Assembly (NCBI GenBank): GCA_043778225.1
Contig: JAYWGM010000098.1
Coordinates: 1 to 62,536 of the forward strand
Length of the DNA stretch: 62,536 bases
Direction: 5' to 3'
From: Deinococcales bacterium
GTDB taxonomy: Bacteria; Deinococcota; Deinococci; Deinococcales; JAAFIG01
A model generated the notes under the pieces. That model saw nothing but the letters and a program-made list of their open reading frames with translations. It did not search any database and was not told the origin of the DNA. Numbering within the stretch: position 1 is the first letter of the stretch; each line of letters opens with the position of its first letter. Made by a program: the position numbers and the translations under genes. Positions 1,631-44,652 of this stretch are shown here, piece after piece.

Positions 1631-1846
1631 AGACCTCTTGCATAAATAATTTCCATCGCTGAAAACAGGATGATGACAAGCGTCACCCCTACAGACAATC
1701 GATTTTTGTAGGCGCGAACCTTGCGACCATGCCCGATAGGTGCGCGTTTATGGTCAAGAAGCGACCATGCCCGATAGGTGCGCGTTTATGGTCAAGAAGT
1801 GTTCGCCCTGCTAAAAATGAATGATTTGGACTTATGCAAGAGGTCT
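1631..1846. mobile_element. MITE-like element with 15-bp terminal inverted repeats, carrying REP-like palindromes and a tandem mini-element
   Basis: Perfect TIR AGACCTCTTGCATAA ... TTATGCAAGAGGTCT; two oppositely oriented GTAGG-starting palindromes inside. Confidence 0.75.
1723..1798 (+). repeat. Two tandem identical 38-bp hairpin mini-elements
   Basis: GCGACCATGCCCGATAGGTGCGCGTTTATGGTCAAGAA at 1723-1760 and 1761-1798. Confidence 0.95.
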
Positions 1847-1871
1847 TATTTATTCGAGCCAATGCCACACC

Positions 1872-2033
1872 CTAACCTACCGACTTGGGCGACTCGAGCC
1901 TTGAATTGGTTTTTCTTCGAGTGACCAAGAAATATAGTGGCACTGGCGGTGCGGCTGAGGCAATAAACAACCGTATTGATGAGCTTTTGATGAAAAACTC
2001 AAGAAGAGTAGCCCAATCCATCACACCACCCAT
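1872..2033 (-). CDS. Possible 53-aa small protein (not in ORF track)
   Basis: Open frame MGGVMDWATLLEFF... preceded by TATCAT-N6-ATG, the leaderless pattern seen at many genes here. No homology recognised. Confidence 0.25.
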   Translation of the reverse strand: MGGVMDWATLLEFFIKSSSIRLFIASAAPPVPLYFLVTRRKTNSRLESPKSVG

Positions 2034-2132
2034 GAGAAGATGATATTCTTTACTTTAAGGAGTCATCCCTAAAGTTATGCAAAGTATCTCTTTCAGCCGT
2101 TTGGCTGTGCAAATTTCCCCAAAGGAGTCATT

Positions 2133-3851
2133 ATGGATCAATTACTTATTGGTCTGCTTATTGGCGCTTTCATCGGGGCTGGAGTCATTTACGCCGTTCT
2201 CAATGCGAATTTTAAGCGCATTCTCGAGACTCGGAGCAATGCTGATACGGAAATTCGTGAAGCCGCGCAACGTGAAGCCGAAACCATCCGACGTGAAGCC
2301 GAAGCAGTTAAACTACAAGCCACCGCCGTTAAAGAAAAAGCTGAGTCCGATGCAGCCCGCATTAAGCAGGATGCTGAGTTACGCGCTCGAGATGATGCCC
2401 AAGCCTTTCAGAACAAGTTAGAAACCGAACTCAAGACCAAATTTGAACTCGAGGCAACTCGAGAGCGGGAAAACATTAAAGCCGATCGTGAAACCGTCAA
2501 GGCTGACCGTGATGCGCTGAAATCCGAACGTGATGGGTTGCGTTCTGAGCGTGAGGAACTGCGGCTCGAGGGCGAACGGCTTTCAAGGCGCGGTGAGCAA
2601 TTGGATATTCGGGTCAGTAAACTCGATGTACTCGAGGAAGCCTTGGAAACGGATAAGAAACGCAATGCCGAATTGCAACTCAGCTTGGAGCAAAAAATCC
2701 ATGAATCCGAACTTAAACTCTATGAGGTTGCTCAATTAACCCGCGAGGCTGCGGCTAAACAGATTCTCGAGAAGCTGGACGACGAACTCGAGGAAGAAAA
2801 AGTGGTGCGAATCCGCACCATGATGAACCGTGTCAATTTAGAAGTCAAACGCCAAAGCCAAAGCATTATCGCCCAAGCAATCCAACGCAGCGCCTCGGAA
2901 ACCACCGCCCAAATTAGTGTAAGCGTTGTGCCAATTCCGTCCGATGCGATGAAAGGCAGGATTATCGGGCGCGAAGGTCGAAATATCCGCGCTTTTGAGG
3001 CTTTGACGGGCGTGGATTTAATTATTGACGACACCCCCGAAGCTGTTATTTTAAGCAGCTTTAACCCAATTCGCCGTGAGGTTGCGGTCAAAGCCCTCGA
3101 GCAATTGGTTGGTGACGGACGGATTCATCCGACTCGAATCGAAGAAGTGGTACAAAAAGCCCAAGACGAAATGAAAACCTATATTCTCGAGCGCGGCGAA
3201 GAAGCCGCCATCGAAGCCAATGTGGTTGGACTCAAACCCGGTTTATTGCAACTCATGGGCAGGATGCACTTTCGCACCAGTTATGCCCAAAATGTGCTAA
3301 AACACAGCATTCAGGTGGCGCACTTAACTGGCATTATGGCAGCCGAACTGGGCTTAGATGCGGTCTTAGCGCGTCGGGCTGGATTGCTGCACGACATTGG
3401 CAAAAGCATAGACCGCGAAATCGAAGGCACACACGTGGACATTGGCATTACCCTCGCCAAACGCTTCGGTGAGCCATTTGAAGTGATTGACGCGATTGCT
3501 CACCACCACGACCCAGAGAATGGCGAAACAGTCTACAGTGTGTTGGCAGCCGCCGCCGATGCGATTAGCGCCGCACGTCCGGGCGCACGGCGCGAAGACC
3601 TCGAGACGTATGTTAAGCGCTTGCAGCAACTCGAGACCATCGCGGTTTCGTTTCCCGGTGTGGAAAATGCCTTTGCGATTCAAGCCGGACGTGAAGTGCG
3701 GGTGATTGTACAACCCGATAAGGTATCCGACAGCAAAGCCACAATGCTTGCCAGAGAAATTGCCACGCGCATTGAACAAGATATGGAATACCCCGGGCAA
3801 GTCCAAGTGACGGTAGTGCGTGAAATGCGGAGCGTTGAATACGCAAGGTAA
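2133..3851 (+). CDS. rny: Ribonuclease Y
   Basis: N-terminal TM, coiled coil, KH ([13 protein letters not shown]), HD domain (LLHDIGK), C-terminal [19 protein letters not shown]. Confidence 0.97.
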
Positions 3852-3856
3852 AGATT

Positions 3857-4627
3857 ATGATTCCAAAAATCCTCAAACCCCTCGAAGTTCAACTTGAGGG
3901 GTTTATGTTAAGTAAAATCACCATTGGTAAATCGGGAGCTGGTGTTTGGCAAGCCTCTCGAGACAAAACAAATTGGTTTATCAAAGCGCAAAAGAATACT
4001 GTTGATCTCGAGATTGAAGCCAACAAAATGCGTTGGTTTGCAGCTCAGGGCATTCAAGTCCCAACTGTGATTGATTACCTCGAGACAAGCAACACCGCTT
4101 TTTTGATTACTCAGGCGCTTACAGGTAAAGATGCCACCCAGTCAGATAACCCTCGAGCAACCGCAATCGCCATAGCACACTTCCTGCACCATTTGCACAG
4201 CCTAAAGCATAGAGATTGCCCATTTGACCGAACCCTCGATAATACCCTCCAGATTGCAAAGCACAACTTACTCAACGGCTTAGTGGATGAAGCAGATTTT
4301 GACCTAGCACGACTTGGTACGCCCGCCGTTCACCTCTATCAGCGATTACTCGAGCAACGTCCAACCAATGAAGATTTGGTGCTAACTCATGGCGATTTTT
4401 GCTTACCAAACATCATTATCGAGAAAAACAGTGTTGTAGGCGTGATTGACCTTGGGCGTGCAGGCATCGCTGACCGTTACCAAGATATTGCTTTAATTCT
4501 CCGCAGTATGGCAAGCAAGATGAACCCAAGCTTTCATGGCTGCACCGACATTTTTACCTACGAGTATGGTATTGACCTCGAGTCAGACAAGCTCGAGTAT
4601 TACTGTTTACTGGACGAATTTTTCTGA
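3857..4627 (+). CDS. APH(3')-family aminoglycoside O-phosphotransferase
   Basis: GKSGA loop, HGDFCLPNII, IDLGRAGIADRYQD, C-terminal YYCLLDEFF. Confidence 0.88.
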   Translation: MIPKILKPLEVQLEGFMLSKITIGKSGAGVWQASRDKTNWFIKAQKNTVDLEIEANKMRWFAAQGIQVPTVIDYLETSNTAFLITQALTGKDATQSDNPRATAIAIAHFLHHLHSLKHRDCPFDRTLDNTLQIAKHNLLNGLVDEADFDLARLGTPAVHLYQRLLEQRPTNEDLVLTHGDFCLPNIIIEKNSVVGVIDLGRAGIADRYQDIALILRSMASKMNPSFHGCTDIFTYEYGIDLESDKLEYYCLLDEFF

Positions 4628-4684
4628 TGTTTATTAGGGCTGCGCGACAGTTTTAGCAGATGAAATTCTGTTCTTCGCACAGCA

Positions 4685-4981
4685 TTATTTCCAACCTCGA
4701 AATTGGTAGTACCGCTCTTTGGGTTCTCCTGTTAGACCATGAATTCCATGTTTAGGTAAATACCAACCATGAATCACCAAGACCAAACCTATCAGTGAAG
4801 CCAAAAACACATAGAACCATATCCGACCTGCAAGTGCTGAAATGGCAATTGAGAGACTCCAAAAGAGCAGTATCTTGATGACTTTGCGTGATTTTGGAGT
4901 GCGCTCTTCAAAGTGTCCAAAGAAAATGTTTCCAATGGCAAATATGCTGCTGATAATCGCAATTTCAAACCAGTAATCCAT
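4685..4981 (-). CDS. Small membrane protein of unknown function
   Basis: Three hydrophobic segments; GAGG RBS upstream. Confidence 0.75.
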   Translation of the reverse strand: MDYWFEIAIISSIFAIGNIFFGHFEERTPKSRKVIKILLFWSLSIAISALAGRIWFYVFLASLIGLVLVIHGWYLPKHGIHGLTGEPKERYYQFRGWK

Positions 4982-4995
4982 TTAGACCTCTTGTA

Positions 4996-5031
4996 TTAGT
5001 CATACCTAAATTATAATTTAGGTATGACTAA
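4996..5031. repeat. Perfect 36-bp loop-less palindrome
   Basis: TTAGTCATACCTAAATTA|TAATTTAGGTATGACTAA, next to a lone AGACCTCTTG TIR copy at 4984-4993. Confidence 0.9.
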
Positions 5032-5148
5032 ATTTCTAGGGACTTTTGAGTTGTATTTCTTTATGCTCGAGAAAAAAGAAATACAAGAAAGTTCAAATGT
5101 ATTTATAGGCGCTCGAGATTCAGTTTGCACCTTGACACATTGTCAAAG

Positions 5149-5943
5149 TCAAGGGCTGTGAATAAATTCCTGCACCGCATCCTCGAGACTGATTTGGTTG
5201 GCATCCACTGTCGTTAAATACTGCTGCAAAAACCTGACCAGAAAACCTTTGCCCTGCACAAACTCGAGCCTGAGCAAATGCCCAAGCGCACCGATTTCTT
5301 GCACATACGCATTGCTAAAATCTGCCAAAGCGGCTTGGCGGTCATACACCACAAACCGAGGCTCGAGTGACCAAGTTGTAGTCTGTGTCAAAATCGCATA
5401 CTGGGCTTCTAATCGCCCACCAAGCGGTAAGCCAGCCGACTCGAGACTCCAAAGTTGGCGGTTATCCCAATGCTTTTCAAACCACTTATGGTTATGTCCA
5501 CGTACAATAAACGGCTCGGTTGTATTTTCAAACATGGCGCGGAGGTCTTCGGTACTCGAGTCAACAAAAATACTTTCAGACAGGCTTTTTGGCGTTGCAT
5601 GGGTAATCAGTAAATCAGATCGGTGCAAAACTCGAGGCAGGGTTCGCATCATCTCGAGGTCAGTCTGGCTAAACTGAGCTTGTGTCCATCGGACACTCTG
5701 AAAACGTTCTTGATGAAGCGTTTCTGTACTGCCCACCGAATAAACATATTCTTCATGATTGCCTTGCAGCACCACACAACCAAGCGACATCACCAGTTCA
5801 AAACATTTTCTCGAGTTTGGATGGATATTGACGGTATCGCCAGCGATGATAATTTCATCCACGCCTTGGGATTTAACATCCTCGAGTATGGCTTCGAGCG
5901 CATGGATATTGCCGTGAATGTCTGAAATAACCGCGATTCGCAT
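5149..5943 (-). CDS. Calcineurin-like metallophosphoesterase
   Basis: SDIHGN, GD, GNHE and GHNH motifs. Confidence 0.9.
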   Translation of the reverse strand: MRIAVISDIHGNIHALEAILEDVKSQGVDEIIIAGDTVNIHPNSRKCFELVMSLGCVVLQGNHEEYVYSVGSTETLHQERFQSVRWTQAQFSQTDLEMMRTLPRVLHRSDLLITHATPKSLSESIFVDSSTEDLRAMFENTTEPFIVRGHNHKWFEKHWDNRQLWSLESAGLPLGGRLEAQYAILTQTTTWSLEPRFVVYDRQAALADFSNAYVQEIGALGHLLRLEFVQGKGFLVRFLQQYLTTVDANQISLEDAVQEFIHSP

Positions 5944-5944
5944 A

Positions 5945-9163
<3,219 letters not shown>

Positions 9164-9167
<4 letters not shown>

Positions 9168-10081: not shown

Positions 10082-10105
10082 GAATTCCTATCGTATACTG
10101 TTGAC

Positions 10106-11811: not shown

Positions 11812-12027
11812 TTACCCACGCCCAGAAGTGAACAACAAGTTCAGCAAGAAAAACACCGCCACAATTCCACCAACCACCAGCAGTAAATGCGGCAAAATAA
11901 TGCTGTAGGCGGCTAAAGTCAATGCCACAAAATCCTTAAAATCGGTTTTGAGTGGCACGACATCATCCGAAGTTTCGGTGATTGGCGAATCGTTGCGGTA
12001 CACGCCTTGGGGTAAGTCTTCTTTCAT
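11812..12027 (-). CDS. Small membrane protein
   Basis: C-terminal hydrophobic helix, abuts the HAD gene, TAAAAT-N6-ATG. Confidence 0.65.
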   Translation of the reverse strand: MKEDLPQGVYRNDSPITETSDDVVPLKTDFKDFVALTLAAYSIILPHLLLVVGGIVAVFFLLNLLFTSGRG

Positions 12028-20385: not shown

Positions 20386-20573
20386 AACTCCCCCTCTCTT
20401 GACCCTGAAGCAGCACCTTCGGGCTTTGGTCGCTCGCTTCTCTTGACCATAAACGCGCACCTGACGGGCATGGTCGCTCGCTCGACCCCTCAAAGAGGGG
20501 TACTAGGTCTTAGGTCTTGATTTTAAGCCCCCCTCTTTGAGGGGGAAACTCGAGGAACGAGAGTGGGGGAGTT
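20386..20573 (-). repeat. Multi-hairpin dispersed repeat (ACTCCCCC...GGGGGAGT ends) carrying two mini-element inserts
   Basis: Reverse complement aligns with 58565-58668; inserts at 20396-20433 and 20440-20477. Confidence 0.85.
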
Positions 20574-20589
20574 GCCCCAAAGGAAATCT

Positions 20590-24858: not shown

Positions 24859-24902
24859 ATCGACTTTTTACCTTTTATCCCTTTTACCTTTTAACCCTGC
24901 CC

Positions 24903-29977: not shown

Positions 29978-30558
29978 TGTGTTACCTCAGTAATTTCAAG
30001 CCAACGTAAAAGTACCCATTGAGCAATTAAAAATCGTCTGGCTTGGACTAAATCAGGATTTTTACCTTGATAGGCTTGTTCCAGACAATCTTGAATTTCA
30101 AGTTGCCAGTGTGTAACTGCCGTCTGGACAGCTTCTTTTGGAGCTTGGTGTTCATGTCCGTAAATTGCTGGGAAATCATCTACGCTTTCAGCAAATTCAA
30201 GGGCGATGCTATGCCAAAATCCCTCTCGAGAAACCCTATTTTGAAGTTTTTTTAGCTGAATTTGTGCTTCCAGTAAAGAATTTTTAAGTAACTCTAAATT
30301 GTCTAACTCGGCAATTTTAGATTTGAGTAATTCAAGTTCAGAACGTAAATGACCGCTTTCCATCTCGAGTGTCGGTATGCGACTGGCTTGTGCGGCTTGC
30401 AATTTTAAGCTGTGATGCTCGAGCCTGAGTTTTTCAAGGCTTGACTCTAGCTCCAAGCGCTTTTGGCGTTCCTCTATCCGAAGTAGTTGTTCTTTTTGCC
30501 ATTCAGATTCATAAAAGTCTTTATGTTCCTGTAGGGTAATTCGTTCATTTTCGGTCAT
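29974..30558 (-). CDS. Coiled-coil protein, gene 3 of the helicase operon
   Basis: Heptad-rich N-terminal ~105 aa, small helical C-terminal domain (FLIAQWVLLRWLE); ATGA overlaps. Confidence 0.8.
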   Translation of the reverse strand: MTENERITLQEHKDFYESEWQKEQLLRIEERQKRLELESSLEKLRLEHHSLKLQAAQASRIPTLEMESGHLRSELELLKSKIAELDNLELLKNSLLEAQIQLKKLQNRVSREGFWHSIALEFAESVDDFPAIYGHEHQAPKEAVQTAVTHWQLEIQDCLEQAYQGKNPDLVQARRFLIAQWVLLRWLEITEVTQ

Positions 30559-31853
30559 GCTATGCCTCGGTAACGTGGTGACTCGAGTATGCCAAGTAAT
30601 TGCTTTAGAACATTTTCCTGACGAAAAACTTGGGATTTCAAAAATGTGGTTAATGGTAAATTTACCGAGTCAAGCAGCAGTTGCTCGAGACCAAGCAGTA
30701 ACACCCCTCGAATCTGATTTTTTGGGTCTGTAAAATCCGAATAATTGGTTTGAGTCAGCAGACTATTGTCATGGTTCAGAAATGCCTTATAAATTTCTAG
30801 CAATCGAATCAATCTTTGGGCGGGTTCAAACGATAAGTGGCGATAATCAATAATCAGAGCATTCTCGAGTTTATTGCTACCAATACTTTCTTGTTGTCCA
30901 CGTTCGCGCTGGGCGTACTCTTGAGCTAATTTCTTTTGGTTATTTTGGGCTTTTTCGAGTTCTTGAGTCAAATCGTTGTTGCGCTGGCGAAGCTGCAATC
31001 TGGCAGCATTAACTTCGAGCAAGGCTTGGGTTTTCTCGAGTAAATCAGCAGCTAAACGCTGGTTTGTTTGGCGTAAAGGTTCGAGCGTAAGTTCAGCTTG
31101 GTTAGCTTTGGCAGTAAGTAACTTGGTTACTTCCTCAATTTTAGTTTTGGTGGCAGCCGTTTCTTGTTGTTCTCGCGCCAATGAATCTTTTAGCCGAGTT
31201 ATTTGGGCTTTGAATTTTTTGGCTTCCTCAAGTTGTTTTTGTTGCTCTACACGAATAGCTTGTTGAATTTGAGTTGTGTGTGCTTGCTCGAGTCGCATCT
31301 TTTGTTGGGCTAACTCTTTTTGTTTGACTGCCTCGGCTTGCTCGAACTTACGTTTTACCTGCTCGAGTTCACGTTCAAGTTGTTGATTGCGTTGCTTTTC
31401 AGTGCGTAAATTCTGCTCAAGCTCAACTATTTGTTTGGTTTGTGTAGTGAGCCGACCTGACCAAATATCAGAAGATTCTTTACCTACTAAAAAATTAGCA
31501 ATCTCAAGAACTGCATTACTGGTTGTTTCGTCTATGGTTTGGTTATTCTCGAGTTTTTCAAGTGTAGCGCTTTGACTGTCAATCCAGATTTGGGCGTACT
31601 GCTCGAGAAGTTTTGGTTCTTGCTCACAGATTTTTGTTAGAGCATCAAGAATTTGCTGGCTGCGAATGTCAGCTAGTTTACTGACTTTAGCCCCAATTAA
31701 ACGTACTCCCATCGCTGGGGATTTACGGAAAAACTTGATGTAAATATCGGAAATTGTTTTCTGTGGCATCATTGTAATAGCTCGAGTCAAGTAATCGCTA
31801 TTTTCTAGCTCGAGCAGCTTATTTTTGTATTGTTCGATGTTTTCTGGGGTCAT
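30555..31853 (-). CDS. Long coiled-coil protein, gene 2 of the helicase operon
   Basis: Q/E/K-rich heptads over about aa 135-320 between globular ends; ATGA overlaps. Confidence 0.82.
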   Translation of the reverse strand: MTPENIEQYKNKLLELENSDYLTRAITMMPQKTISDIYIKFFRKSPAMGVRLIGAKVSKLADIRSQQILDALTKICEQEPKLLEQYAQIWIDSQSATLEKLENNQTIDETTSNAVLEIANFLVGKESSDIWSGRLTTQTKQIVELEQNLRTEKQRNQQLERELEQVKRKFEQAEAVKQKELAQQKMRLEQAHTTQIQQAIRVEQQKQLEEAKKFKAQITRLKDSLAREQQETAATKTKIEEVTKLLTAKANQAELTLEPLRQTNQRLAADLLEKTQALLEVNAARLQLRQRNNDLTQELEKAQNNQKKLAQEYAQRERGQQESIGSNKLENALIIDYRHLSFEPAQRLIRLLEIYKAFLNHDNSLLTQTNYSDFTDPKNQIRGVLLLGLEQLLLDSVNLPLTTFLKSQVFRQENVLKQLLGILESPRYRGIA

Positions 31854-34800: not shown

Positions 34801-37141
34801 GAATATGGGCGCGGTCATACGGCAATGTTTCCTCGAGTCGGCGTTTTTGAATCTCACCAAGGTACAAAACGCTGGTAAAATACTCAAATTCGTCTTTTTC
34901 GCCGGGCAACAAAGTTGCACTGGTTAGTGTGACACTTTTAGCGCGTTCCCAAAGCGGTTTTAGAAATTGCTCGAGGTCAATTGGTTGGGCAACGTGTTCC
35001 CAGTTATTCTTGGCATCTAGGGTGGTTAAGTATAACCAATCATCGTCAGGTTCAATCTCTGTGTCTGAGGTTTGTTGGTTTTGATTGCTTTTGGTAGCTT
35101 CAAGGCGCTCTTGCAGCATTTCATTGTGTTGCTTGAAAAATTCTAAGGTCGGCTCGAGTTTGAATCTTATTTGATGGGCTTGGCGCACGAATTCGTACAA
35201 TGCAGCTTGAAGGTTTTGCATCGCTTCACGCCAGCGTTTTTCATAAAGAATCAGACGCATCCACTCTGGGGTTTTCATACTTTTTAAGGTGTAGGTTAGC
35301 CCATACTCGATTTCGCCTTTGCCAAATTGTTTAACGAACTGGGTCATCTCGCGGTGATATTCGTTAAACCGCTCAAAGGCTTCAGGAATCAGTCTTTGGC
35401 GCACATGGGTCGCAAGTTCAAGTACCGTGGTTGCATTTTTACCAAGCTGCTCGATTAACTTTTGGCTGTTCAGCAAAATACTACCGTCGGTCAAGCGATT
35501 ACTTGCCAATACCCCTTTTCGAGTCCGTGCATCAAACAATTTCCGCAGATGAAAAACCACATCTTCGGATTTGGAGATTCTGGTAAAGCTATTGGTGGCG
35601 ACATCCTCGAGATTATGGGCTTCATCTATGACCAGATGAAAGGCTTTTTCTTCGACACTTTCGGTATTGGAGTCATCTCGAGACTGGGCTAAACGACTGA
35701 GTAAATAGGCTTGATTGGTAATCCAAAGGCTGCTGGTACTGCGTTGCCGCACATCGGTTTGATAAGCACAGAACTTATAAAATGGGCATTTTTCACGGCA
35801 TCGGCTCGAGACGGTTTGAACATTAAATTTGAGCTCTCGGTAGGCACTCGAGGCTTGCCAATAAAACGGTAAGCTCTCGAGATCAAATTCAGAATTGCGA
35901 ATTAACGCTACCAGCACGGCTCGAGCCGCACCGCCCTGACGAAAATCATCGTCTTCTTCGGGTTTATACTCGAGAATGCTTTCTTCGAGCGCTTCGGTAC
36001 AAATCGAATCCCTGGCGCTTTTGACATTGCTGGCTTTAACGCTGTAGCCCTTAGCGGCAATCTCGCGCAGTTCGTTCATGGCTTGTTCTTGCAGTACCTT
36101 GGTGTGCGTGGCAACAATAATCGTTTCGTTGGACGTATGACTCTGATGATACAAAGCTGGAAAAATGTAGCCTTTGGTTTTACCTGTGCCAGTTGGAGCT
36201 TGAATCATGGCTTTTGGGTTTCGTTCCTCAAAGGCTGCCGTGACCATATGCGCCATTTCGCCTTGAGGGGCGCGGTACTTGGGTAAGTGTTTTTGCATGG
36301 TTTTTAAGGACTCGATTTGTTGGACATCAAAACCATTTGGGACGCGGTTGTGTTTAAGCTCCTCGAGTGCCGTATTGAGTTGCTCCAAACTAAAAAGATT
36401 CTGCTCGAGACCTGTTTTGACCCAAGCTGGAAACAAATCTTTTGAAGCTGGGAATGCCAGTCCTGTAGAATTGAGGAAAGGCACTTGGGCTTCGATTTCT
36501 AGCGCTGCCCGTAATTCAGTCTCGAGGTTAAGTGCTATATCTGGGTAAAACCGTGCTTCTGGTAAGTCCAGCATCTTCCATAAACGCATTTGGATGGCAT
36601 CAGATGGTGGTTTAGCAATCAGACGCTCGAGAACAGTGCGAGTGGCTTTACAGTCCTCTAAGGCTTGGTGAGCGCCTTCCATATCCAGACTTGTAAAGTA
36701 CCGAAACAAATGCCCGACTGAATAACCAAGCAAACCCTCGGGTGGTGTTGGGAATAACAGGTGCGACCAACGCAAAGTGTCCACAGCATTTTTCACGCCA
36801 ACAGGTTCGGGCAAATCAGCTTCTTTTAGAACTCGAGTCAGAATTGGCAAGTCATACTCGTAGATATTATGCCCACACAGCACAGCATCACCAATAAACT
36901 CGAGAAAATCTTGTAAAGCGTGTTCGATGGGAATTTTACCAGCTTCGTATTCGGCATAATCAATGTGCTGGAAAGCATAAAGGTCTTGGCGCAGCTTAGT
37001 TTTGGTTTCAAGAAAACGATGAAAAGTACGTTCACCACAAATTGCAGCCAATTCGACAATCTCGGCTTTTCCTGTATCTGTGTCGGTTGTCTCAAGATCA
37101 AAAATGACTAACTTAGCGCTATCCAAGACCGTATTTTGCAT
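31850..37141 (-). CDS. Fusion of DEDDh 3'-5' exonuclease, DinG-type Fe-S SF2 helicase and RecQ-type helicase
   Basis: Exonuclease: FDLETT, GHNI..YD, HQALED. DinG: QAPTGTGKT, four Cys, IDEAHNL, TSATL, EGVD, QAFGRLIR. RecQ: LPTGYGKS, DEAHC..WGHDFRPDY, TATAT, ATNAFGMGVDK, QEAGRAGRD, C..CCGNC. Confidence 0.92.
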   Translation of the reverse strand: MQNTVLDSAKLVIFDLETTDTDTGKAEIVELAAICGERTFHRFLETKTKLRQDLYAFQHIDYAEYEAGKIPIEHALQDFLEFIGDAVLCGHNIYEYDLPILTRVLKEADLPEPVGVKNAVDTLRWSHLLFPTPPEGLLGYSVGHLFRYFTSLDMEGAHQALEDCKATRTVLERLIAKPPSDAIQMRLWKMLDLPEARFYPDIALNLETELRAALEIEAQVPFLNSTGLAFPASKDLFPAWVKTGLEQNLFSLEQLNTALEELKHNRVPNGFDVQQIESLKTMQKHLPKYRAPQGEMAHMVTAAFEERNPKAMIQAPTGTGKTKGYIFPALYHQSHTSNETIIVATHTKVLQEQAMNELREIAAKGYSVKASNVKSARDSICTEALEESILEYKPEEDDDFRQGGAARAVLVALIRNSEFDLESLPFYWQASSAYRELKFNVQTVSSRCREKCPFYKFCAYQTDVRQRSTSSLWITNQAYLLSRLAQSRDDSNTESVEEKAFHLVIDEAHNLEDVATNSFTRISKSEDVVFHLRKLFDARTRKGVLASNRLTDGSILLNSQKLIEQLGKNATTVLELATHVRQRLIPEAFERFNEYHREMTQFVKQFGKGEIEYGLTYTLKSMKTPEWMRLILYEKRWREAMQNLQAALYEFVRQAHQIRFKLEPTLEFFKQHNEMLQERLEATKSNQNQQTSDTEIEPDDDWLYLTTLDAKNNWEHVAQPIDLEQFLKPLWERAKSVTLTSATLLPGEKDEFEYFTSVLYLGEIQKRRLEETLPYDRAHILLPSHLPEARMSSMERFQKLHQEELKNLLPQINRSLNLFTARSRLEKTKKVLEKESEIVGRLHAPLTRREREAVSQALSDVNKRSDKAVALGTRAFMEGVDFYDLNLVALERIPFPTPTPLLEKRKARIEKAHGRDAAWTYYLGKALLTFTQAFGRLIRDDRALSGNGAFVLWDRRILTSTYYFDVLESLPRKFIDGDQVHKPKSRIEFYKKLEEILGINFSGFEETLMDKTTKDLLELREKWASKTISLKAALAELMRLYWTEGREIKPKQQQAIEAAINKQDALVLLPTGYGKSLTFQAPAILEGGLTIVISPLIALMKDQVQGLKDRGAPVAAIYSGIPGAEQRSILEQAEKGDVNLLYLSPERVNKNNDLQQVLLRLASKGKLKRLVYDEAHCLSDWGHDFRPDYLRVKSKIAEIGLKLPTVCLTATATQAVRDDLQKNLNLNVQEAIWDSSNRPNIEYHAEHFPGKRDDRSDDRSKLRSTIQILTWAAEKFKDDYAIIVYVSTRKKAETVARALSTYTGQVIEAYHGGLSAVIRSEIQDHFIEGTNKVIVATNAFGMGVDKTNVRAVIHFEPPSNIPAYVQEAGRAGRDHKPAYAVLMHSSRDWSLHEYIGQLGQPQKYHAEALLELLRKNKGTIRMYNDKIQEAINEILSTDEQKADLEPEGVLWLLNTMQQSKLLDYTYELGKAQLFISQWSVLQDLGAENLISLEKLKITSISKARQRHWIDFTELPKAEANALSDALHELRRQIADPSLFFATFESSIEIKAETNPDLTEFSRVIEKRFQERKIGIQAIKQYASVSACKRDSLLKVFAERADPKRDKETCCGNCNQDYKPWSDTPRITDDEIVQILKPNRAILEFLRDHRKERLAWIEKKRKADPSFNLEYSGIGTRRISMVLRGAESEFGGQEHPIQLKWFESNSRHFGSLIGATHSDIEKAIQTLTGRKLMNEAEFNGHPIYKISEYGLQELEKTGKRGKTI

Positions 37142-37149
37142 ATGTTTGA

Positions 37150-37182
37150 ATTATAACGCTTGCGTGTCGCATATTCGTCGCA
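37150..37182 (-). promoter_or_regulatory. Putative promoter of the helicase operon: TATAAT plus a TGCGAC direct repeat
   Basis: Minus strand reads TGCGAC-N5-TGCGAC-N10-TATAAT-N8-ATG. Confidence 0.55.
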
Positions 37183-37256
37183 TTCAGTATAAAACCCTGA
37201 TAGCTATAAAATTACTTGAGCTTACTTAACTCAAGTACAAAAAAATTGAGCCTTTA

Positions 37257-39710
37257 CTATTTTTTACGTACAACCCCGCGCACTGCCTGAGCAGTGTACG
37301 GGTCTTCTGCCCACGAATGCTTTGGGTATTTGATTTTTAGTTCGCGGCGCACATTGGGGTACGTATTTTTCCAGAAACTACTTAAATCCTGTGTGACTTG
37401 AACGGGTCGGTAAGCTGGGCTGAGAAGATGCAGCAGCACTGGATTGCGTCTATCATTAACGCTTGGGGTCTCGAGCAAGCCAAAGACTTCTTGGAGGCGC
37501 ACCGCCAGCACGGGCGCAGCGCCATCCAAGTGGTACTCGAGCCGAATCTGGCTACCACTCGGGACAAGCATTTTGGCTGGAGCGAACGTGTCTATTTGGC
37601 GCTGAATTTCCCATGGCAGACTTTGCTCGAGGATGACACGCAAATCAAGGCGGGTAAAATCGGCTTGGCGGCGGACTGGCTCGAGGTGTGGGGCTAACCA
37701 AGTCTCGAGGCTTTCGAGTAATGCCATATCCGAAAAATCCGGGAAAGCATCACCACGCCACAGATGCAGACTCTGAACTCGAGCTTGAAATTGTCGTGCA
37801 TTTTCTGACCACTCGAGCAAGTTTGGGTTCGCCCGAATGGCTTGGCACAGCACACGGTTTTTCTCGAGCATTGGAATAGTAAGCAGTGGTTTAGATTCCA
37901 GTATCAGTTCACCGATTCGGATTTCGGTTCGGGCAATCAGTGCGCCTTCTCGAGTATCCCAACGCAGCACCTCAAGGCTTGTACAAAACGGCTCGAGGTC
38001 TTGGCTCTCGAGCGGGGCGCACAAAAAGACTTTGCCTTCTTCGCTGCCCGCATCGGCTTGAGCAACCGCCAACCACGGCGTACTCTGCAATGGGTCGGAA
38101 GCTGGGAGTTGCACGCCGCGCCCCAAGGCGAGTTTGTAGCGGCGACTCTCGCCTGTTCGCAAGTTTGCAATTCGGTCTGGGTACGCCAGCGCCACAAGTT
38201 TTCCAACCTCAGCATGATTAAATTCGGTAGTCTCGAGTTTGGTTTTAAGAAGTTTTGCCCACTGCTGTGCCACCCGTTCAACTCGGTCTAGGCGCTGTTT
38301 ATCGGCTTCAAAAATTCGTTTGCCCAGTCGGGCAGCCCGTAAGGCTTGGACTCGAGTGCCAAGGTCGGTGCTGTCGGATTCTAAAAAATCGCGTTCCTCG
38401 AGTATCGCTGCCACATCGGCTGCCAGCCCCGCCAAACCTAGGCGCTGCCCCTCGAGTGCCAAATGTGCCAAACGCGGATGGGCTGGAAAGCGCAACATCG
38501 CTTGCCCACGGGTGGTGATGCGGTTGTTTTCGATTGCGCCAAGCCGATTTAGCAGGTCGTTGGCTTTCTCAAGGGCTGTGGGGGCTGGGGGCGTAACCCA
38601 CTCGAGGTTCTGAGCGCCCCAAGCGGCAAGCTCGAGCGCAAGCGGCGCTAAGTCGGACTCGAGAATTTCTGGTTTTCTGGTTCTTTCAAGGCTGGCGTGT
38701 TGGCTTTGTGTCCAAAGTCGGTAGACAATTCCAGCTTGGGTACGCCCAGAGCGTCCAGCCCGTTGGGTGGCTGCGTCAACAGTCACACGCACCGTCTCGA
38801 GCCGCGTCAGGCTGCTCTGTGGGTCAAACCTTGGCACTCGAGCCACACCGCTATCCACCACAATTCGCACCCCTTCGATCGTCAGGCTGGTCTCGGCAAT
38901 GCTAGTGGCAAGCACAATTTTGCGCTTGCCATGTGGGTCGGGCAAAATCGCTTTGGTCTGGGCATCCAAGCTCAGTTCGCCGTACAGAGGCAACACCACT
39001 GCGCCGCAGTCCTCGAGCATTTCCATACAGCGCAAAATTTCGCCAGCCCCAGGCAAAAATGCCAGAATATCGCCAGTCTCGGCTTCGAGCGCTCGAAAAA
39101 TGCTTTGGGCAACTCGGTTTGGGATTGGTGTCTCGAGTTGTTTTGCTGCATAACGAATTTCGATTGGGTAGGAGCGCCCCTCGGCGCGAATAATCGGCGC
39201 ATTCAGTACACTCGAGAGGTGCTGACCATCGAGCGTGGCGCTCATGATGATGATTTTTAAGTCTGGGCGAATTTCGCGTTGAATCTCGCGGCACAGTGCC
39301 AAGGCTAAATCGGCATGGATACTGCGTTCGTGAAACTCGTCAAAAATAACACAGCCCACACCCTCGAGCGTCGGGTCGTCTTGCAACTGGCGGGTTAAAA
39401 GCCCTTCAGTCAGGACAAAAAGCTGGGTTTGGCTCGAGACAACTTTTTCAAAACGCACCTGATAGCCAACGCGCTGCCCAACATTTTGCCACAGTAAACT
39501 TGCCATGCGGGTTGCTACGCTTCTGGCTGCCAAACGACGCGGCTCGAGCATGATCATTTTGCCTTGGATTTGCCCGAGTAAAAAAAGTGGCAACAGCGTA
39601 CTTTTACCCGCTCCTGGGGGGGCTTCTATAATCAAGGTCTGGTTGGTCTCGAGTTGGGCGGCAAGCTCGGGGAGGATTGATTCGATTGGCAGTTGAAACT
39701 TATCAGACAT
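37257..39710 (-). CDS. hrpB: ATP-dependent RNA helicase HrpB
   Basis: APPGAGKS, EPRRLAAR, DEFHER, MSATL, ATSIAETSLTI, QRAGRSGR, C-terminal YPKHSW. Confidence 0.95.
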   Translation of the reverse strand: MSDKFQLPIESILPELAAQLETNQTLIIEAPPGAGKSTLLPLFLLGQIQGKMIMLEPRRLAARSVATRMASLLWQNVGQRVGYQVRFEKVVSSQTQLFVLTEGLLTRQLQDDPTLEGVGCVIFDEFHERSIHADLALALCREIQREIRPDLKIIIMSATLDGQHLSSVLNAPIIRAEGRSYPIEIRYAAKQLETPIPNRVAQSIFRALEAETGDILAFLPGAGEILRCMEMLEDCGAVVLPLYGELSLDAQTKAILPDPHGKRKIVLATSIAETSLTIEGVRIVVDSGVARVPRFDPQSSLTRLETVRVTVDAATQRAGRSGRTQAGIVYRLWTQSQHASLERTRKPEILESDLAPLALELAAWGAQNLEWVTPPAPTALEKANDLLNRLGAIENNRITTRGQAMLRFPAHPRLAHLALEGQRLGLAGLAADVAAILEERDFLESDSTDLGTRVQALRAARLGKRIFEADKQRLDRVERVAQQWAKLLKTKLETTEFNHAEVGKLVALAYPDRIANLRTGESRRYKLALGRGVQLPASDPLQSTPWLAVAQADAGSEEGKVFLCAPLESQDLEPFCTSLEVLRWDTREGALIARTEIRIGELILESKPLLTIPMLEKNRVLCQAIRANPNLLEWSENARQFQARVQSLHLWRGDAFPDFSDMALLESLETWLAPHLEPVRRQADFTRLDLRVILEQSLPWEIQRQIDTFAPAKMLVPSGSQIRLEYHLDGAAPVLAVRLQEVFGLLETPSVNDRRNPVLLHLLSPAYRPVQVTQDLSSFWKNTYPNVRRELKIKYPKHSWAEDPYTAQAVRGVVRKK

Positions 39711-39757
39711 ATTGCGCGTAGAATACCCTTGGGTTTACCCAAATAAGGAGAATTACC

Positions 39758-40159
39758 ATGGATGAAGTTAAAAATGTTGTTGCAAATGTCGGCGAACAAG
39801 CCAAAGCTGGACTCGAGAATGCCCACAATGTAGCTGGAGATGTGGCTGGTCAAGCCAAAGCGGGTCTCGAGGGTGCTGGGCAAGCGGCTGGCGACTTAGG
39901 CGCAAAAGCCGCCGATATGGCTGGCGATGCCGCCGCTAAAGCCAAAGACATGGCTGGCGACTTGGGCGAGAAAGCCAAAGAACTCTTAGGCGATGCCCCA
40001 GAACAAGCCAAAGAATTTGCCGAAAATGCTTTTGAAACTGTTAAGGATGTTGCTGAAGATGTCGCTAAGGGTGTTTCCGATGCCGTTGGCGGCGCAATCG
40101 AGGGCGCTAAAAACCTCTTGGGTGGTTTACTTGGCGGCGGCAAAGACAAAGACGCATAA
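39758..40159 (+). CDS. Low-complexity amphipathic repeat protein (LEA-like)
   Basis: A/G/D/K-rich 11-mer repeats (LGAKAADMAGD, AAAKAKDMAGD, LGEKAKELLGD); AAGGAG RBS. Confidence 0.7.
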   Translation: MDEVKNVVANVGEQAKAGLENAHNVAGDVAGQAKAGLEGAGQAAGDLGAKAADMAGDAAAKAKDMAGDLGEKAKELLGDAPEQAKEFAENAFETVKDVAEDVAKGVSDAVGGAIEGAKNLLGGLLGGGKDKDA

Positions 40160-40167
40160 TCTGAGTG

Positions 40168-40198
40168 AAAAAAAGCGCAGCTTCGGCTGCGTTTTTTT
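40168..40198. terminator. Bidirectional intrinsic terminator
   Basis: A-tract GCGCAGC TTCG GCTGCGT T-tract between convergent genes. Confidence 0.85.
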
Positions 40199-41282
40199 AT
40201 GCCCGAGCCAAGAGGTCTTGCTCGAGCCGCTCGGCAGTCAAAAGCCCAATACCAATCAAGCCCGCATCACGTCCCAAAGCCGATAACTCAAGTGGAGTGT
40301 GCAGACCAATACTTTCAAGCATGACTCGCAACGGCTCAAGCACCAGTTCTCGGGTATGAGGAAATTCTTGACGCAGCACAATTCGGTCTGGGTCAAGGGT
40401 GGTGATGATTCCAGCCACCGCCAAGGCAAGATGCTGCACCGCCTGCTGGACTGCTTTTTGCGCCAAACTCGAGCCTTGTTGAGCCGCCTGAAAAACTTCT
40501 GATTCCCAATTTTGGATCGTTGGGTCAGAACTGACCGCCCGCAATGCCTCAAAAAAACCATAGGCGAGAGCGCCAAGCCGTGGTTTTTCAAAGCCAACCA
40601 GACTGCTTGGCAAATAACTCATCTCGCCAGCCGCACCCCTCGAGCCACGCAGTAAGTTTTTGTTCAGCACAATTCCAGCCCCAATACCAAAGGCAAAAAT
40701 CATAAAGGCAAAATTAGCTGTGCCATGTCCTTGGCGCAACTCACCCCAAGCTGCACTGCGGGCATCATTCTCGAGCAGCACAGGTTTTTCCAGGGCTTGT
40801 TGCAGGGTTTCTAAAGACAATGGTTGCAAACCAAACAACCATGAATGCTCAAGGTCATTGGTTGGGCTGATAATTCCGGGGGCGCAAATGCCAATCCGTT
40901 GTGCCTTTGGGTGAATCATGGCTTGAAGAAACTGCAAAGCATCGGCTCGGCTGAGTTTTGAGAAACTAAAAAGGCTAATGCTCTCTTGTTGCTCGAGTTG
41001 TTGACCATGTAAGTCAAAAAGTGCCGTCTGAAGCCTCGAGCCACCCAAGTCTATGGCTTGAATCAGGTGTTGTTCGGGAGTTGTGCGGTAGCGTTTGGCG
41101 GGTCTGCCTTGCCCACGAATTTGTCCATCCTCGAGAATCAGCTTTTGTTGCTCCAAGCGCTTCATGGCGTGAATCACGGCTGGTAGGCTTAGCCCCGTGC
41201 TGCCAACAAGTTCGGGCTGGGTCTGTGGGCTGACTTGACGCAAGGCTGCGTAGACTCGATGAAGTGCCTGATTGTAACTCAC
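40197..41282 (-). CDS. ROK family transcriptional regulator
   Basis: N-terminal HTH with GRP, IDLGGS, LENDA, GIGAG, GAAGE. Confidence 0.9.
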   Translation of the reverse strand: MSYNQALHRVYAALRQVSPQTQPELVGSTGLSLPAVIHAMKRLEQQKLILEDGQIRGQGRPAKRYRTTPEQHLIQAIDLGGSRLQTALFDLHGQQLEQQESISLFSFSKLSRADALQFLQAMIHPKAQRIGICAPGIISPTNDLEHSWLFGLQPLSLETLQQALEKPVLLENDARSAAWGELRQGHGTANFAFMIFAFGIGAGIVLNKNLLRGSRGAAGEMSYLPSSLVGFEKPRLGALAYGFFEALRAVSSDPTIQNWESEVFQAAQQGSSLAQKAVQQAVQHLALAVAGIITTLDPDRIVLRQEFPHTRELVLEPLRVMLESIGLHTPLELSALGRDAGLIGIGLLTAERLEQDLLARA

Positions 41283-41303
41283 ATTGCATATTTTACTACA
41301 AAT

Positions 41304-41315
41304 ACTTTATAAAGT
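41304..41315. promoter_or_regulatory. Candidate ROK operator
   Basis: Perfect palindrome ACTTTATAAAGT in the divergent intergenic region. Confidence 0.45.
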
Positions 41316-41354
41316 CTACTTTACAAACTCACAATTTAGTGCTTGGAGGCATTT

Positions 41355-42650
41355 ATGAAAAAACGCTTATCGCTTCTCGTTGCTTTTGGTCTGGCTACGG
41401 CTGTTGCCGTTGGTCTCGCCCAGAATAGCCCTGCTACTGACCCGCTCAAAGGCAACACAAAGTTAAGTGGCGAGATTTCTTTGTTCAGTTGGGCAGAGCC
41501 TAGTTATGCTCCTTTTGTGGCAGAGTTTAATAAGCTCTACCCGAACATCAAAGTTAAATTTGTGACCGTCGGTTACGGTGATGCCTACCCACGCATCACC
41601 GCCAGTCTAGCGGGCAATGTGCCACTTGCCGATGTGGTGATGATTGAATCCGAACGGGTCGAAATTTACGGCTCGCGCTTTCCCAATGCTTTTACCGACC
41701 TAAGCGCATGGGGCAACAAATGGGAGCGCAATTTTGACCGCAGCAAATGGGCGCAAAGTGTCGTCAAAGGTAAACTCATCACCATGCCAACCGATGCCGC
41801 ACCGGTCGGAATGTGGTACAGAGCCGATATGCTCGAGAAGGCTGGGGTCAATCCAAGCAGCATCAAAACTTGGAACGATTACTTGGCGGCTGGCAAAAAA
41901 GTCGTGGCAGCCAACCCGGGGGTCAAAATGGCAGGTATTGACTCAACTGGCTCAGAAACACTTTTACGGATTTTAATTCAGCAACAAGGCAGTTTCTACA
42001 TTGATGCCGACGGCAAAATTGCGGTCAATTCAGCAAAGATGGTACGGGCTTTGACTTTTCTTAAAACCGCTTGGGAGGCTGGAATCCTCGCTAATATCCA
42101 AGGCACAGATGGCTTGATTGGCGCAGTCAAAGGCAACCGTGTGGCTGGCGTAAATTTACCCGTCTGGATGATTGGAATTTTCAAGACCTTTACCCCAGAA
42201 CAAAAAGGCAAATGGGGTGTGGCACAAATCCCAGCCCTGACCGCAGGTGGCGGACAAAGCGCTTACATTGGTGGCTCGAGTCTCGCCATACCCGCCAACA
42301 GCCAAAACAAAGAAGCCGCATGGGCATTTGTCGAGTGGTACACGACTTATGGTTCTAAAAGAGTTCTCGAGTTACGCGGCAGTTGGCCCTCCTTTGTGCC
42401 AAGCCTGAACGCCCCAGTCCTCAATGCCCCAGACCCATTTTTTGCCACCCCCAATGTCTTTGAACCCTTTAAGAAAAGCGCCTTTTTGGGTCGCCCATTG
42501 CGTTACTCGAGCGATTACGACAAAGCCTTTGGCGTGGTGGTCGCCGCCCAAAGCAGCGTCCTAAACGGTGGACAAAATGTCCAAACCGCCTTAGACAAAG
42601 CCGCCAACGACCTAAAAAATGCCACTGGGCGCGAGATTGCAGCCAAGTAA
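41355..42650 (+). CDS. Sugar ABC transporter substrate-binding protein
   Basis: Signal peptide, FNKLYPNIKV, WYRADM, TWND, GGSSLAIP, AWAFV. Confidence 0.92.
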   Translation: MKKRLSLLVAFGLATAVAVGLAQNSPATDPLKGNTKLSGEISLFSWAEPSYAPFVAEFNKLYPNIKVKFVTVGYGDAYPRITASLAGNVPLADVVMIESERVEIYGSRFPNAFTDLSAWGNKWERNFDRSKWAQSVVKGKLITMPTDAAPVGMWYRADMLEKAGVNPSSIKTWNDYLAAGKKVVAANPGVKMAGIDSTGSETLLRILIQQQGSFYIDADGKIAVNSAKMVRALTFLKTAWEAGILANIQGTDGLIGAVKGNRVAGVNLPVWMIGIFKTFTPEQKGKWGVAQIPALTAGGGQSAYIGGSSLAIPANSQNKEAAWAFVEWYTTYGSKRVLELRGSWPSFVPSLNAPVLNAPDPFFATPNVFEPFKKSAFLGRPLRYSSDYDKAFGVVVAAQSSVLNGGQNVQTALDKAANDLKNATGREIAAK

Positions 42651-42738
42651 GGTAAAAAGTAGAAAAGGTTAAAAGGTCAAAAGGGGATATGGAACTTTTA
42701 ACCTTTTTACCCTCTGACCTTTTAACCCTTTGACCTCT
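42651..42738. repeat. Inverted array of degenerate octamers (AAAAGGTY / RACCTTTT)
   Basis: Purine-rich units followed by complementary pyrimidine-rich units; related arrays at about 24865-24897 and 54909-54980. Confidence 0.7.
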
Positions 42739-43596
42739 ATGAAACATTTCCCTTTTGCACCACTTGCGTTCCTAGCGCCAGCACTTTTGCTGTATGCGCT
42801 TTTTACGGCTTTTCCTGTAGCTCGAGCCTTGATTTTAAGTTTGCAACGCAATGTAGACGGCGAGATTCGCTGGGCAGGTTTGGGGCAGTATCAACGGCTT
42901 TTAGGCGATGATATTTTTAAGCAAGCCCTATTTAACACTGGCATTTTTTTAGTCATTCAAGTGCCAATCATGCTGGTCACTGCCCTCTTATTGGCTGTGG
43001 CACTGAATTCTAGGCGCTTTGCTTTTCGGGATGTGTTTCGCAGTGCCTACTTTTTGCCAAGCATCATGAGCTTGGTGGCAGTGGGTGTGCTTTTTCGGGT
43101 TTTACTGAACGAGGATTTAGGCTTGGTCAATTACTTGTTGCGTTCTATCGGACTTGAGTCTGTGCCTTGGATTACTCATCCGTGGTGGGCAAAAGTGACG
43201 GTCATGCTGATTTTAACGTGGCGTTACACAGGCTTTATGATGGTGATTTATTTATCGGGTTTACAAAGCATTCCCGACGAACTTTTTGAAGCTGCCCAAA
43301 TAGATGGCTCGAGTCCAGTCCAGTCATTTTGGTTTATTACCCTGCCATTACTTCGCCCAACGATACTATTTACCACGATTTTATCCACCATTGGGGTGCT
43401 GCAAATTTTTGATGAGGCGGTGATTGTGACCCGTGGCGGACCTGCCAACGAAACTTTAACGCTGGGCTTGTACTTATACCAAACTGCCTTTCAAAGCGTG
43501 GATTTTCATTATGCCGCCGCCTTGAGTTGGGTGCTGGTCATCCTGATTGGCGCTCTGAGCCTTGTGCAACTCAAACTCGGGGAGCATGGACAATGA
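42739..43596 (+). CDS. Sugar ABC transporter permease
   Basis: TM helices and EAA motif (LFEAAQIDG). Confidence 0.93.
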   Translation: MKHFPFAPLAFLAPALLLYALFTAFPVARALILSLQRNVDGEIRWAGLGQYQRLLGDDIFKQALFNTGIFLVIQVPIMLVTALLLAVALNSRRFAFRDVFRSAYFLPSIMSLVAVGVLFRVLLNEDLGLVNYLLRSIGLESVPWITHPWWAKVTVMLILTWRYTGFMMVIYLSGLQSIPDELFEAAQIDGSSPVQSFWFITLPLLRPTILFTTILSTIGVLQIFDEAVIVTRGGPANETLTLGLYLYQTAFQSVDFHYAAALSWVLVILIGALSLVQLKLGEHGQ

Positions 43597-44435
43597 AAAA
43601 ACCATTCACCCTACTCGAGACCGTGGCACTGATTATCGTTGCGATTGGCGCGTTGCTGGCAGTCTTTCCATTTTACTGGATGTTTAGTTCTGCCACTCGA
43701 GCCTCGGCGGATGTCTTGGGGATTCCACCGCGCTTAGATTTTGGGGCAGCCTTGTGGGACAACATCCAAACACTCATCGGCAAGGGTTTTTTACGTTCGA
43801 TTTGGAATTCTACGTTTATCGCGGCACTTGATACGGTTGGGACATTGTTGGTGGCAAGCATGGCTGGATTTGCCTTAACCCAATACCGTTTTAAGACTCG
43901 AGAATTTATTTTTGGCTTATTCTTACTGACTTTAATCGTTCCACCACAAGTCACGATTGTGCCGCTTTTTCAGTTAATGGCTGGGCAGAATCCGTTTGGT
44001 TTGAATTTATTAGGCACACCTTGGGCAATTATTTTACCAGCTTTATCCAGTAGTTTTGCGATTTTTTTTATGCGTCAGGCTTTTCAAAAATACCCGCCCG
44101 AACTGAGCGATGCGGCTCGAGTAGATGGCGCAAATGATTGGATTGTGTTTTGGAAAATTGCTCTGCCGACAATGCGCCCAAGTCTGGCAGCCCTGAGTAT
44201 TTTTGTGTTTTTGGGGCAGTGGAATAGTTTTTTCTTGCCACTGATTATGAATGGCAACAACACCGACGGACGCACCTTGCCCTTGGCAATCTCGAGCTTG
44301 ATTGGTGAAAACGAAATTGACTATGGGGCGCTGATTACAGGCACAGCAATTTCGGTACTTCCTGTGCTGATTTTCTTTTTGTTCGCCCAGCGCTTGTTTG
44401 TTTCTGGGGCATTATCTGGGTCAGTCAAAGGATAA
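43593..44435 (+). CDS. Sugar ABC transporter permease
   Basis: TM helices and EAA-like motif (ELSDAARVDGA). Confidence 0.93.
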   Translation: MKKPFTLLETVALIIVAIGALLAVFPFYWMFSSATRASADVLGIPPRLDFGAALWDNIQTLIGKGFLRSIWNSTFIAALDTVGTLLVASMAGFALTQYRFKTREFIFGLFLLTLIVPPQVTIVPLFQLMAGQNPFGLNLLGTPWAIILPALSSSFAIFFMRQAFQKYPPELSDAARVDGANDWIVFWKIALPTMRPSLAALSIFVFLGQWNSFFLPLIMNGNNTDGRTLPLAISSLIGENEIDYGALITGTAISVLPVLIFFLFAQRLFVSGALSGSVKG

Positions 44436-44438
44436 CTG

Positions 44439-44652
44439 ATACCAAATTGTGTTAATCAGTCGCGTATTTTGACTGATTAACCGACTAAGCGACCCTGCCC
44501 GTGAGGTGCGTGTTTAGGGTCAAGAAAAGGAGTGACAACGAAACCGAATTAACATTTGAAGCGCGAACAGCCCGCAAGGTGCTGTCTTGTGAGCAAGAAC
44601 GACAGTTTGACCGTTTTTTGGGCAAACGAGAGTGATTAAGTTAATTCGGTAT
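44439..44652 (+). mobile_element. MITE-like repeat (imperfect TIR ATACC.AATT..TTAATCA) with two mini-element inserts
   Basis: Matches the 1-97 copy apart from inserts at 44489-44526 and 44561-44599. Confidence 0.8.

Follow-up and report, generated by a model that had tools for sequence, protein, structure and literature searches.

The subject of this study is a hairpin element of 38 to 40 nt that occurs six times in a window of 62,536 nt, which is the whole of contig JAYWGM010000098.1 (C98) of a 4.03-Mb Deinococcales genome (GCA_043778225.1; here G000). Comparison of filled and empty sites showed that this element is a discrete non-coding, non-autonomous mobile unit that has been inserted many times independently. 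A preliminary description of the window had proposed a tiny non-autonomous element, similar to the small dispersed repeats (SDRs) of cyanobacteria, that invades structured repeats and is moved by an unknown agent. Our analysis supports this view.

A strict pattern search with iterative removal of inner copies returned 152 matches in G000 (127, 21, and 4 over three rounds), one of which, on contig C54, was discarded as chance. The resulting family comprises 151 copies with 107 sequences, and 25 of the copies could be detected only once an inner copy had been peeled away. The same pattern had no match in either of two genome-sized order-4 Markov control genomes. Five additional copies with a longer inner stem were also found in G000. 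The 151 copies form 100 clusters, of which 64 are single, 26 are pairs, and 10 hold three to five copies; because 64 clusters are single, pairing is no rule, and the earlier statement that copies always come in pairs is true of the window only. By a rough, automatic sort, whose residual class of 28 holds several missed repeats, the hosts were repeats resembling miniature inverted-repeat transposable elements (MITEs; 29 copies), other copies of the element (27), hairpins resembling repetitive extragenic palindromes (REPs) with a GTAG foot (25), tandem neighbors (16), C-run/G-run repeats (16), and octamer tandem repeats (10). Insertion into other repeats is common, as first proposed, but it is not restricted to them: 11 of the 100 clusters lie in long open reading frames (ORFs), some of these in a repeat that the ORF itself contains. 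In addition, one antisense copy interrupts a tRNA-Ile(TAT) gene and is annotated by ARAGORN as an intron. The ORF hosts, whose names were read from sequence and not from a search, are purL (twice), dnaE, dnaX (four copies), metH, two nuo genes, a U32 peptidase gene, and an IS3 transposase gene; the inserts in dnaX, purL, and dnaE are in frame. The interrupted tRNA gene belongs to a cluster of tRNA genes that are unusual or degenerate (C28, 45850-46070; L162). Three copies lie in IS3-like elements (C38:27871, C94:5474, and C73:15834), two of them between the two IS3 ORFs and the third close to the end of the transposase ORF.

Mobility was assessed from empty alleles, defined as the joined flanks found elsewhere in the genome (24 nt, at most 2 mismatches). 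Such alleles were found for 111 of the 151 copies, the remaining 40 having no match or lying at a contig end, and relative to them the insert extended beyond the core by 1 base in 66 cases, by 2 bases in 44, and by none in 1. Orthologous sites differ between species as well. At the gcvH-gcvP locus (the 20.4-kb site of the window), compared in five relatives, the same C-run/G-run host is empty in G003 and carries in G007 a single insert of another variant, placed one base farther along; a different host at this locus, a REP, is empty in G006, filled in forward orientation in G005, and filled in reverse in G001. The dnaX gene is element-free in all four relatives compared, the homologue of a gene on contig C15 is empty in G001 and filled in G005, and the REP upstream of a gene for a REP-associated tyrosine transposase (RAYT) holds a copy in G000, a different variant in G006, and no element in G001. 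The existence of empty, other-variant, and reverse-filled orthologous sites establishes repeated independent insertion, which is our firmest result. Two further comparisons concern the window itself: the region upstream of the RNase Y gene, beside the first two copies, shows no synteny in the relatives, and contigs of two possible source runs contained no junction from which a copy at 1723 or 20.4 kb was missing, a result that is uninformative either way.

These data bear on two alternatives raised in the preliminary description. That copies fall at random outside repeats does not agree with the finding that 21 of 103 empty sites, self-nesting sites counted, end in a closed GNA or GNNA loop, compared to a background of 2.6%. 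The other alternative, that the element is a fixed module of composite repeats that lacks empty alleles and spreads passively with REPs and MITEs, is extremely improbable. Some copies have spread with their host, as seen where one variant recurs on several contigs at an identical position in the MITE. A fixed module, however, would have to explain why 111 sites have empty alleles, why the hosts comprise five or more types as well as unique genes, why unlike variants nest in one another, and why opposite orientations occur at one orthologous REP, and this alternative is already contradicted by the comparison of orthologous sites.

Within the window, all six copies were confirmed in the sequence, and even a looser pattern yielded no seventh. 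Their three pairs are of two kinds: one is an identical head-to-tail tandem, and two are pairs of unlike variants at separate sites in one host. The tandem consists of copies 1 (1723..1760, forward; 37-nt core 1723-1759 plus A) and 2 (1761..1798, forward; core 1761-1797), which have the same sequence and split a GTAG-footed REP-like hairpin (1708..1810, forward) that is flanked by an aminotransferase class III gene and the RNase Y gene; 14 near-matches to the empty form of this host exist in the genome. Its REP label follows the GTAG/GTGG definition given in the available portion of PMC6006769. Copies 3 (20395..20433, reverse; 37-nt core 20397-20433 with a GAA triloop) and 4 (20439..20477, reverse; 37-nt core 20441-20477) lie in a C-run/G-run double-hairpin repeat (20386..20575, reverse) between the genes for glycine cleavage proteins H and P. 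The bounds first reported at 20.4 kb are corrected to these 39-nt inserts, each ending in a GA that echoes the last two bases of the target. The repeat at 58565..58668 (forward), between V/A-type ATPase genes, is an insert-free paralogue of this host as had been noted, but its sequence differs at the first insertion point, and it is no exact empty allele there. Copies 5 (44489..44526, forward; 37-nt core 44489-44525 plus A) and 6 (44561..44599, forward; 38-nt core 44561-44598 plus A, of a subfamily with tandem G.A pairs) lie in a MITE-like repeat (44440..44651, forward) that measures ~135 bp when empty, has short terminal inverted repeats, gave 45 nhmmer hits in the genome, and is absent at the orthologous site of G006 and G007. 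An empty copy of this host, cut by the contig end, lies at 1..96 (reverse), and excising the two 44.5-kb inserts restores colinearity with it (1-97 in the preliminary description), as claimed.

Other repeats of the window deserve mention. The ~135-bp MITE-like family (window positions 1-96 and 44440-44651) has T-N-A-like flanks, and many of its copies lie at contig ends. Intergenic octamer-like tandem repeats of the AAAAGGTT type, a type that hosts elements on other contigs, are empty at 24863-24898 and 42649-42737. At 1429-1482, the beginning of the aminotransferase gene contains a 27-nt direct repeat that is absent from the orthologues of five relatives.

The exact pattern was present in all 18 other genomes of the same uncultured Deinococcales family (1 to 151 matches) and was not found in the 22 genomes searched from four other Deinococcales families. 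Within the family, G002 has a single match and G013 has 7, and the remaining genomes have between 19 and 151. A scan of GTDB gave at least 114 loci, 102 of them in metagenome-assembled genomes (MAGs) of Deinococcota; the named carriers among the matches listed are uncultured Deinococcales MAGs, and none of the at least 114 loci listed is cyanobacterial. The 12 loci outside Deinococcota, one per genome, were taken as chance and excluded from the counts. One of these, a single pattern match in Microbacterium (L015), keeps a 5-bp outer stem and is probably chance. A covariance model (R1) applied to 149 other Deinococcota, with 44 candidates scored per genome, gave weak hits only, in 13 genomes and at 22 to 27 bits compared to 47 to 56 bits for true copies. 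Plasmids in PLSDB matched only at E values of about 7, and five pattern matches in IMG/VR, all without the outer stem, were taken as chance.

The core of the element begins with a fixed 5' GCG, ends with a fixed 3' AAGA, measures 35 to 40 nt, and is followed by 1 to 2 variable bases. The absence of terminal inverted repeats was confirmed, as the ends are not complementary. On one strand, an unpaired GC is followed by an outer stem of 5 to 7 bp with free sequence and, at the other end, by an unpaired AAGA; the inner stem, GCCC/GG-T-GC, is invariant, including its bulged T, and is accompanied by a one-sided bulge of 4 to 6 nt on the 3' arm and capped by a GNNA or GNA loop of 3 to 4 nt. In 36 gap-free sequences, five of the six outer-stem pairs change on both sides and 95.3% of the cells pair, a level that none of 500 shuffles reached and that compares with 24 to 42% in slid controls. 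Across 218 distinct sequences, 86% of outer-stem pairs are Watson-Crick, compared to 54% with shuffled partners. Because the copies are related, such counts overstate the number of independent events. The four inner pairs are invariant and therefore uninformative by themselves; they are supported by a subfamily with one base added to each inner-stem arm (five copies in G000), and in a subfamily of 34 sequences two C-G pairs are replaced by tandem G.A. A likeness to domain V of group II introns was considered and dropped, as the 5' AGC has no partner.

At 72 unique non-tandem sites, the target base before the insert was A in 51 cases and the base after it was G in 54. Steps of this A^G type in hairpin loops were preferred as targets, the loop of the element itself included; a rule of insertion "always after a G" fails at 18 of the 72 sites. 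The hexamer CTCGAG was seen by eye as the target at 1 of 151 sites. It is by far the commonest hexamer genome-wide (24,878 counts) and forms a palindrome like the highly iterated palindrome HIP1. The preliminary description was right that there is no consistent target duplication, but the 1 to 2 added bases often repeat the target. Among 59 better-supported junctions, they end in A at 39 of the 40 sites that follow A; where the target ends in another base, a repeat of the target is seen at 10 of 18 sites (5 of 13 without homopolymer-ambiguous rows), and overall the last added base matches the last base of the target at 49 of 58 junctions. Added C, A, CA, or AA without a counterpart in the target also occur. 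No fixed duplication results because the added bases vary, and a circle carrying 1 to 2 donor bases and joined preferentially to a matching target end fits these junctions best.

Such matching ends would also be expected if host replication or repair moved the element with no dedicated enzyme. A nick or a stalled 3' end in a target loop would prime via the 1 to 2 matching bases, copy a donor copy or a small circle once or more, and then be ligated back. The identical tandems and the fact that no enzyme gene tracks the element would fit this course too. On the other hand, the ends, the inner stem, and the bulged T are invariant across 19 genomes while the outer stem varies freely, which implies recognition by a specific protein, and the element is restricted to one family. 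We therefore consider movement by host repair unlikely.

Nests and tandems differ in kind. All 29 nested pairs were on the same strand, and none were identical; 7 of 11 tandems were identical and 10 of 11 were within 1 nt, compared to 0.9% for a random pair. Orientation relative to genes was unbiased (35 sense and 26 antisense; n = 61, P = 0.31), and a count by replication strand gave 22 versus 14 on contigs with weak skew. The loops of the 218 sequences were GNYA in 109 cases, GNRA in 77, GNA in 23, and other in 9, the third loop base being left free by the search patterns. RNA hairpins would favor GNRA loops. For DNA, the available text of PMC10085684 gives GNNA tetraloops and GNA triloops as stable loops. 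Reverse transcriptases (RTs) are scarce: RVT_1 domains occur in 5 of the 19 family genomes, and none was found in the one closed chromosome. From the GNYA and GNA loop variants, the same-strand nesting, the lack of bias in gene direction, and the scarcity of RTs, we infer that movement as strand-specific single-stranded DNA is favored.

An RNA intermediate, in which the unit would be released from transcripts and inserted through reverse transcription by a borrowed RT, with untemplated A or C and short duplications arising from priming, would suit the combination of one sharp junction and one ragged junction with untemplated A or C. It would also suit the RNA folding energies, which prefer the top strand in 174 of 218 sequences, and the T.G at one inner position in 40 of 218. 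We regard it as quite unlikely all the same, given that GNYA and GNA loops together outnumber GNRA loops, that there is no sense bias, that the window has no Rfam match at the gathering score, and that RTs occur in so few of the genomes, the lone 447-aa RVT_1 protein of G000 lying beside no copy. This protein (L130, contig C65) is not intron-like by eye and is probably of a defense type.

Among possible mobilizers, G000 has one RT, one IS200/IS605 TnpA with a TnpB-like neighbor, one RAYT-like protein, and one IS110. The A^G step reads C|T on the opposite strand, and TnpA-REP cuts C|T on single-stranded DNA according to the available part of PMC8266576. Since inserts lie mostly at A^G, an HUH-type enzyme is the best candidate mobilizer, and we put a Y1/HUH (RAYT-like) nuclease at somewhat less than an even chance. 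RAYT-like genes were found in 17 of the 19 family genomes. In the mechanism we propose, a trans-acting strand-transfer enzyme, most likely Y1/HUH, would recognize the invariant inner hairpin and copy the unit out as a 38- to 39-nt circle with 1 to 2 bases of the old flank. This circle would then be joined to exposed single-stranded DNA at targets with a matching last base. A single event, with the circle copied round a second time or with slippage, would give an identical tandem, and nests would represent separate insertion events.

Many observations weigh against this proposal. Among the well-supported junctions, exact A^G was seen at only 29 of 59, and 1 to 2 variable added bases are not expected from precise HUH transfer. 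The C|T lies on the strand opposite to that with the GNNA loop and the tandem G.A. In REP hosts the element occurs on either strand (16 same and 9 opposite, with two rows corrected by hand). The predicted folding of single sequences is weak (z of -0.15 to -1.62), DNA folding energies do not separate the strands, and the last A of the loop was fixed by the search patterns, as was the first G in the cross-genome set. RAYT-like genes also occur in 6 of the 22 element-free genomes of other families, and none was found in G005, which is 84% complete and has 51 pattern matches. RAYT genes have GTAG REPs of their own on their flanks. The element lies near only 5 of 28 RAYT rows, and inside the upstream REP in the three of these with upstream sequence examined, and it has no GTAG guide of its own. 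No 38- to 39-nt circle was observed, and no enzyme is tied to the element. Nor did any partner gene or paralogue family recur beside copies when 102 loci (±300 nt) were compared with the G000 ORFs.

A clade of IS110 elements (L132 and L219 to L235, in several genomes) uses the loop of the mini-element as its landing site. The IS110 of G000 (C26, about 30339-31780; L132) is inserted in a nest of three copies within a MITE, in the loop of the innermost one, and relatives were found in 8 of the 19 family genomes with one query. Of 14 matches examined, one, at 31% identity, is another kind of IS110 that lies outside any element. In the rest, element halves directly adjoin the IS110 at a CT core at each of the 9 left ends and each of the 10 right ends that are visible. 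The clade has DEDD_Tnp_IS110 and Transposase_20 domains and the CT core at both ends. At all 8 loci with both parts visible, over four loop variants, a segment of the IS110 5' non-coding end equals the loop of the host copy, and another segment corresponds to the left target. In IS621/IS110 elements, bridge-RNA guides match both target halves, as stated in the accessible portion of PMC11208160, and we predict that the IS110 non-coding segments here are bridge-RNA guides, the right one following the loop variants. Mini-elements, in turn, insert into the IS110 non-coding end and, in some copies, into the transposase gene.

The same recombinase might also move the element, with half-match recombination at the CT core freeing a single-stranded circle. 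The IS110 and nested copies do share the same AG/CT step of the loop, elements sit in the IS110 non-coding end, and IS621 is reported, in the available text of 10.64898/2026.08.31.748434, to excise single-stranded circles and insert by half matches. This idea is nevertheless very unlikely in our judgment: the clade occurs in 8 of 19 genomes only (by the one query), the ends of the element are a poor match to the donor junction of the insertion sequence, most targets have nothing in common with the guides, AG is lacking at half of the junctions, and inspection by eye of the orphan halves listed revealed no free-standing permuted copies. The IS110 clade is probably a hyperparasite rather than the mover.

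How elements of less than 50 nt move has been an open question since SDRs were described. We tentatively suggest, as a possibility that we rate well below even, that this element and the cyanobacterial SDRs form an unrecognized class of mobile single-stranded DNA hairpins of 20 to 50 nt, moved by an undescribed host-encoded strand-transfer activity, and that a three-tier parasite system exists here. If so, the element would invade REPs, MITEs, genes, and the guide locus of an IS110, and the bridge-RNA IS110 would reprogram its guide after the loop variants. The family supplies hundreds of insertions dated by nesting, together with exact empty alleles, and the invariant core defines what the mover must recognize; a 39-mer can be made as a single oligonucleotide and assayed. 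The element also adds 13-residue peptides to essential proteins, and the IS110 clade offers a natural series of predicted bridge-RNA guides that change with their target.

By the features tested, the element is neither a REP nor a MITE nor an IS200/IS605 derivative. A MITE identity was rejected on the lack of complementary ends and on the variable 1 to 2 added bases in place of a fixed duplication; an origin as a non-autonomous IS200/IS605 derivative was rejected on the single hairpin instead of two subterminal ones and on a weak A^G preference instead of a fixed tetranucleotide target. As far as the available portions of the sources on REPs, REPINs, and RAYTs (TnpA-REP, Y1 HUH) describe them (PMC6006769, PMC8266576, PMC3733652), the element resembles these systems in being a short imperfect hairpin of high copy number that is lineage restricted and strand specific, with a junction readable as C|T on one strand (29 of 59 sites). 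It differs in having no GTAG/GTGG or CGTC foot (its ends are GCG and AAGA) and in its asymmetric bulged stem; moreover, it inserts into REPs and does not flank RAYT genes as a cognate repeat. With Rickettsia palindromic elements, as portrayed in the available part of PMC3733652, it shares in-frame inserts in housekeeping genes (here purL, dnaE, dnaX, metH, and nuo), but it is much shorter, self-nesting, and mostly intergenic. For the passenger IS110 alone, the likeness to IS621/IS110 lies in the domains, in a CT core at each end, and in guide-like segments that match the two halves of the target; whereas IS621/IS110 elements target REPs in the accessible account (PMC11208160), this clade targets a mobile mini-element, with the right guide tracking loop variants. 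No account of the element in Deinococcota was found in the literature searched, which comprised the main texts of largely open-access papers and included 10.64898/2026.10.21.760802 and PMC3733652.

The closest parallel is with SDR1 to SDR8 of Nostoc and its relatives, reportedly described by Elhai et al. in 2008 (said to be in Genome Res 18:1484). SDRs are self-nesting, show compensatory changes, measure 21 to 27 nt, and are hosted by short tandem repeats and minitransposons; we know of no mobilizer identified for them. The present element has precise insertion with filled and empty sites, self-nesting, and compensatory change, all features of the SDR type. In the available parts of PMC4390886, PMC5861425, PMC2884548, and PMC3116915, SDRs likewise appear as very small, gene-less repeats without terminal inverted repeats that insert precisely into other repeats. 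In those parts they are about 20 nt long, compared to 38 to 40 nt here, and are reported only in Nostocaceae, whereas this element occurs in Deinococcota; SDR5 is aimed at HIP1, whereas this element is not aimed at the local palindrome CTCGAG. Likened by description and not by sequence, the element thus appears to work as the Nostoc SDRs do, but at a length and in a lineage outside their range.

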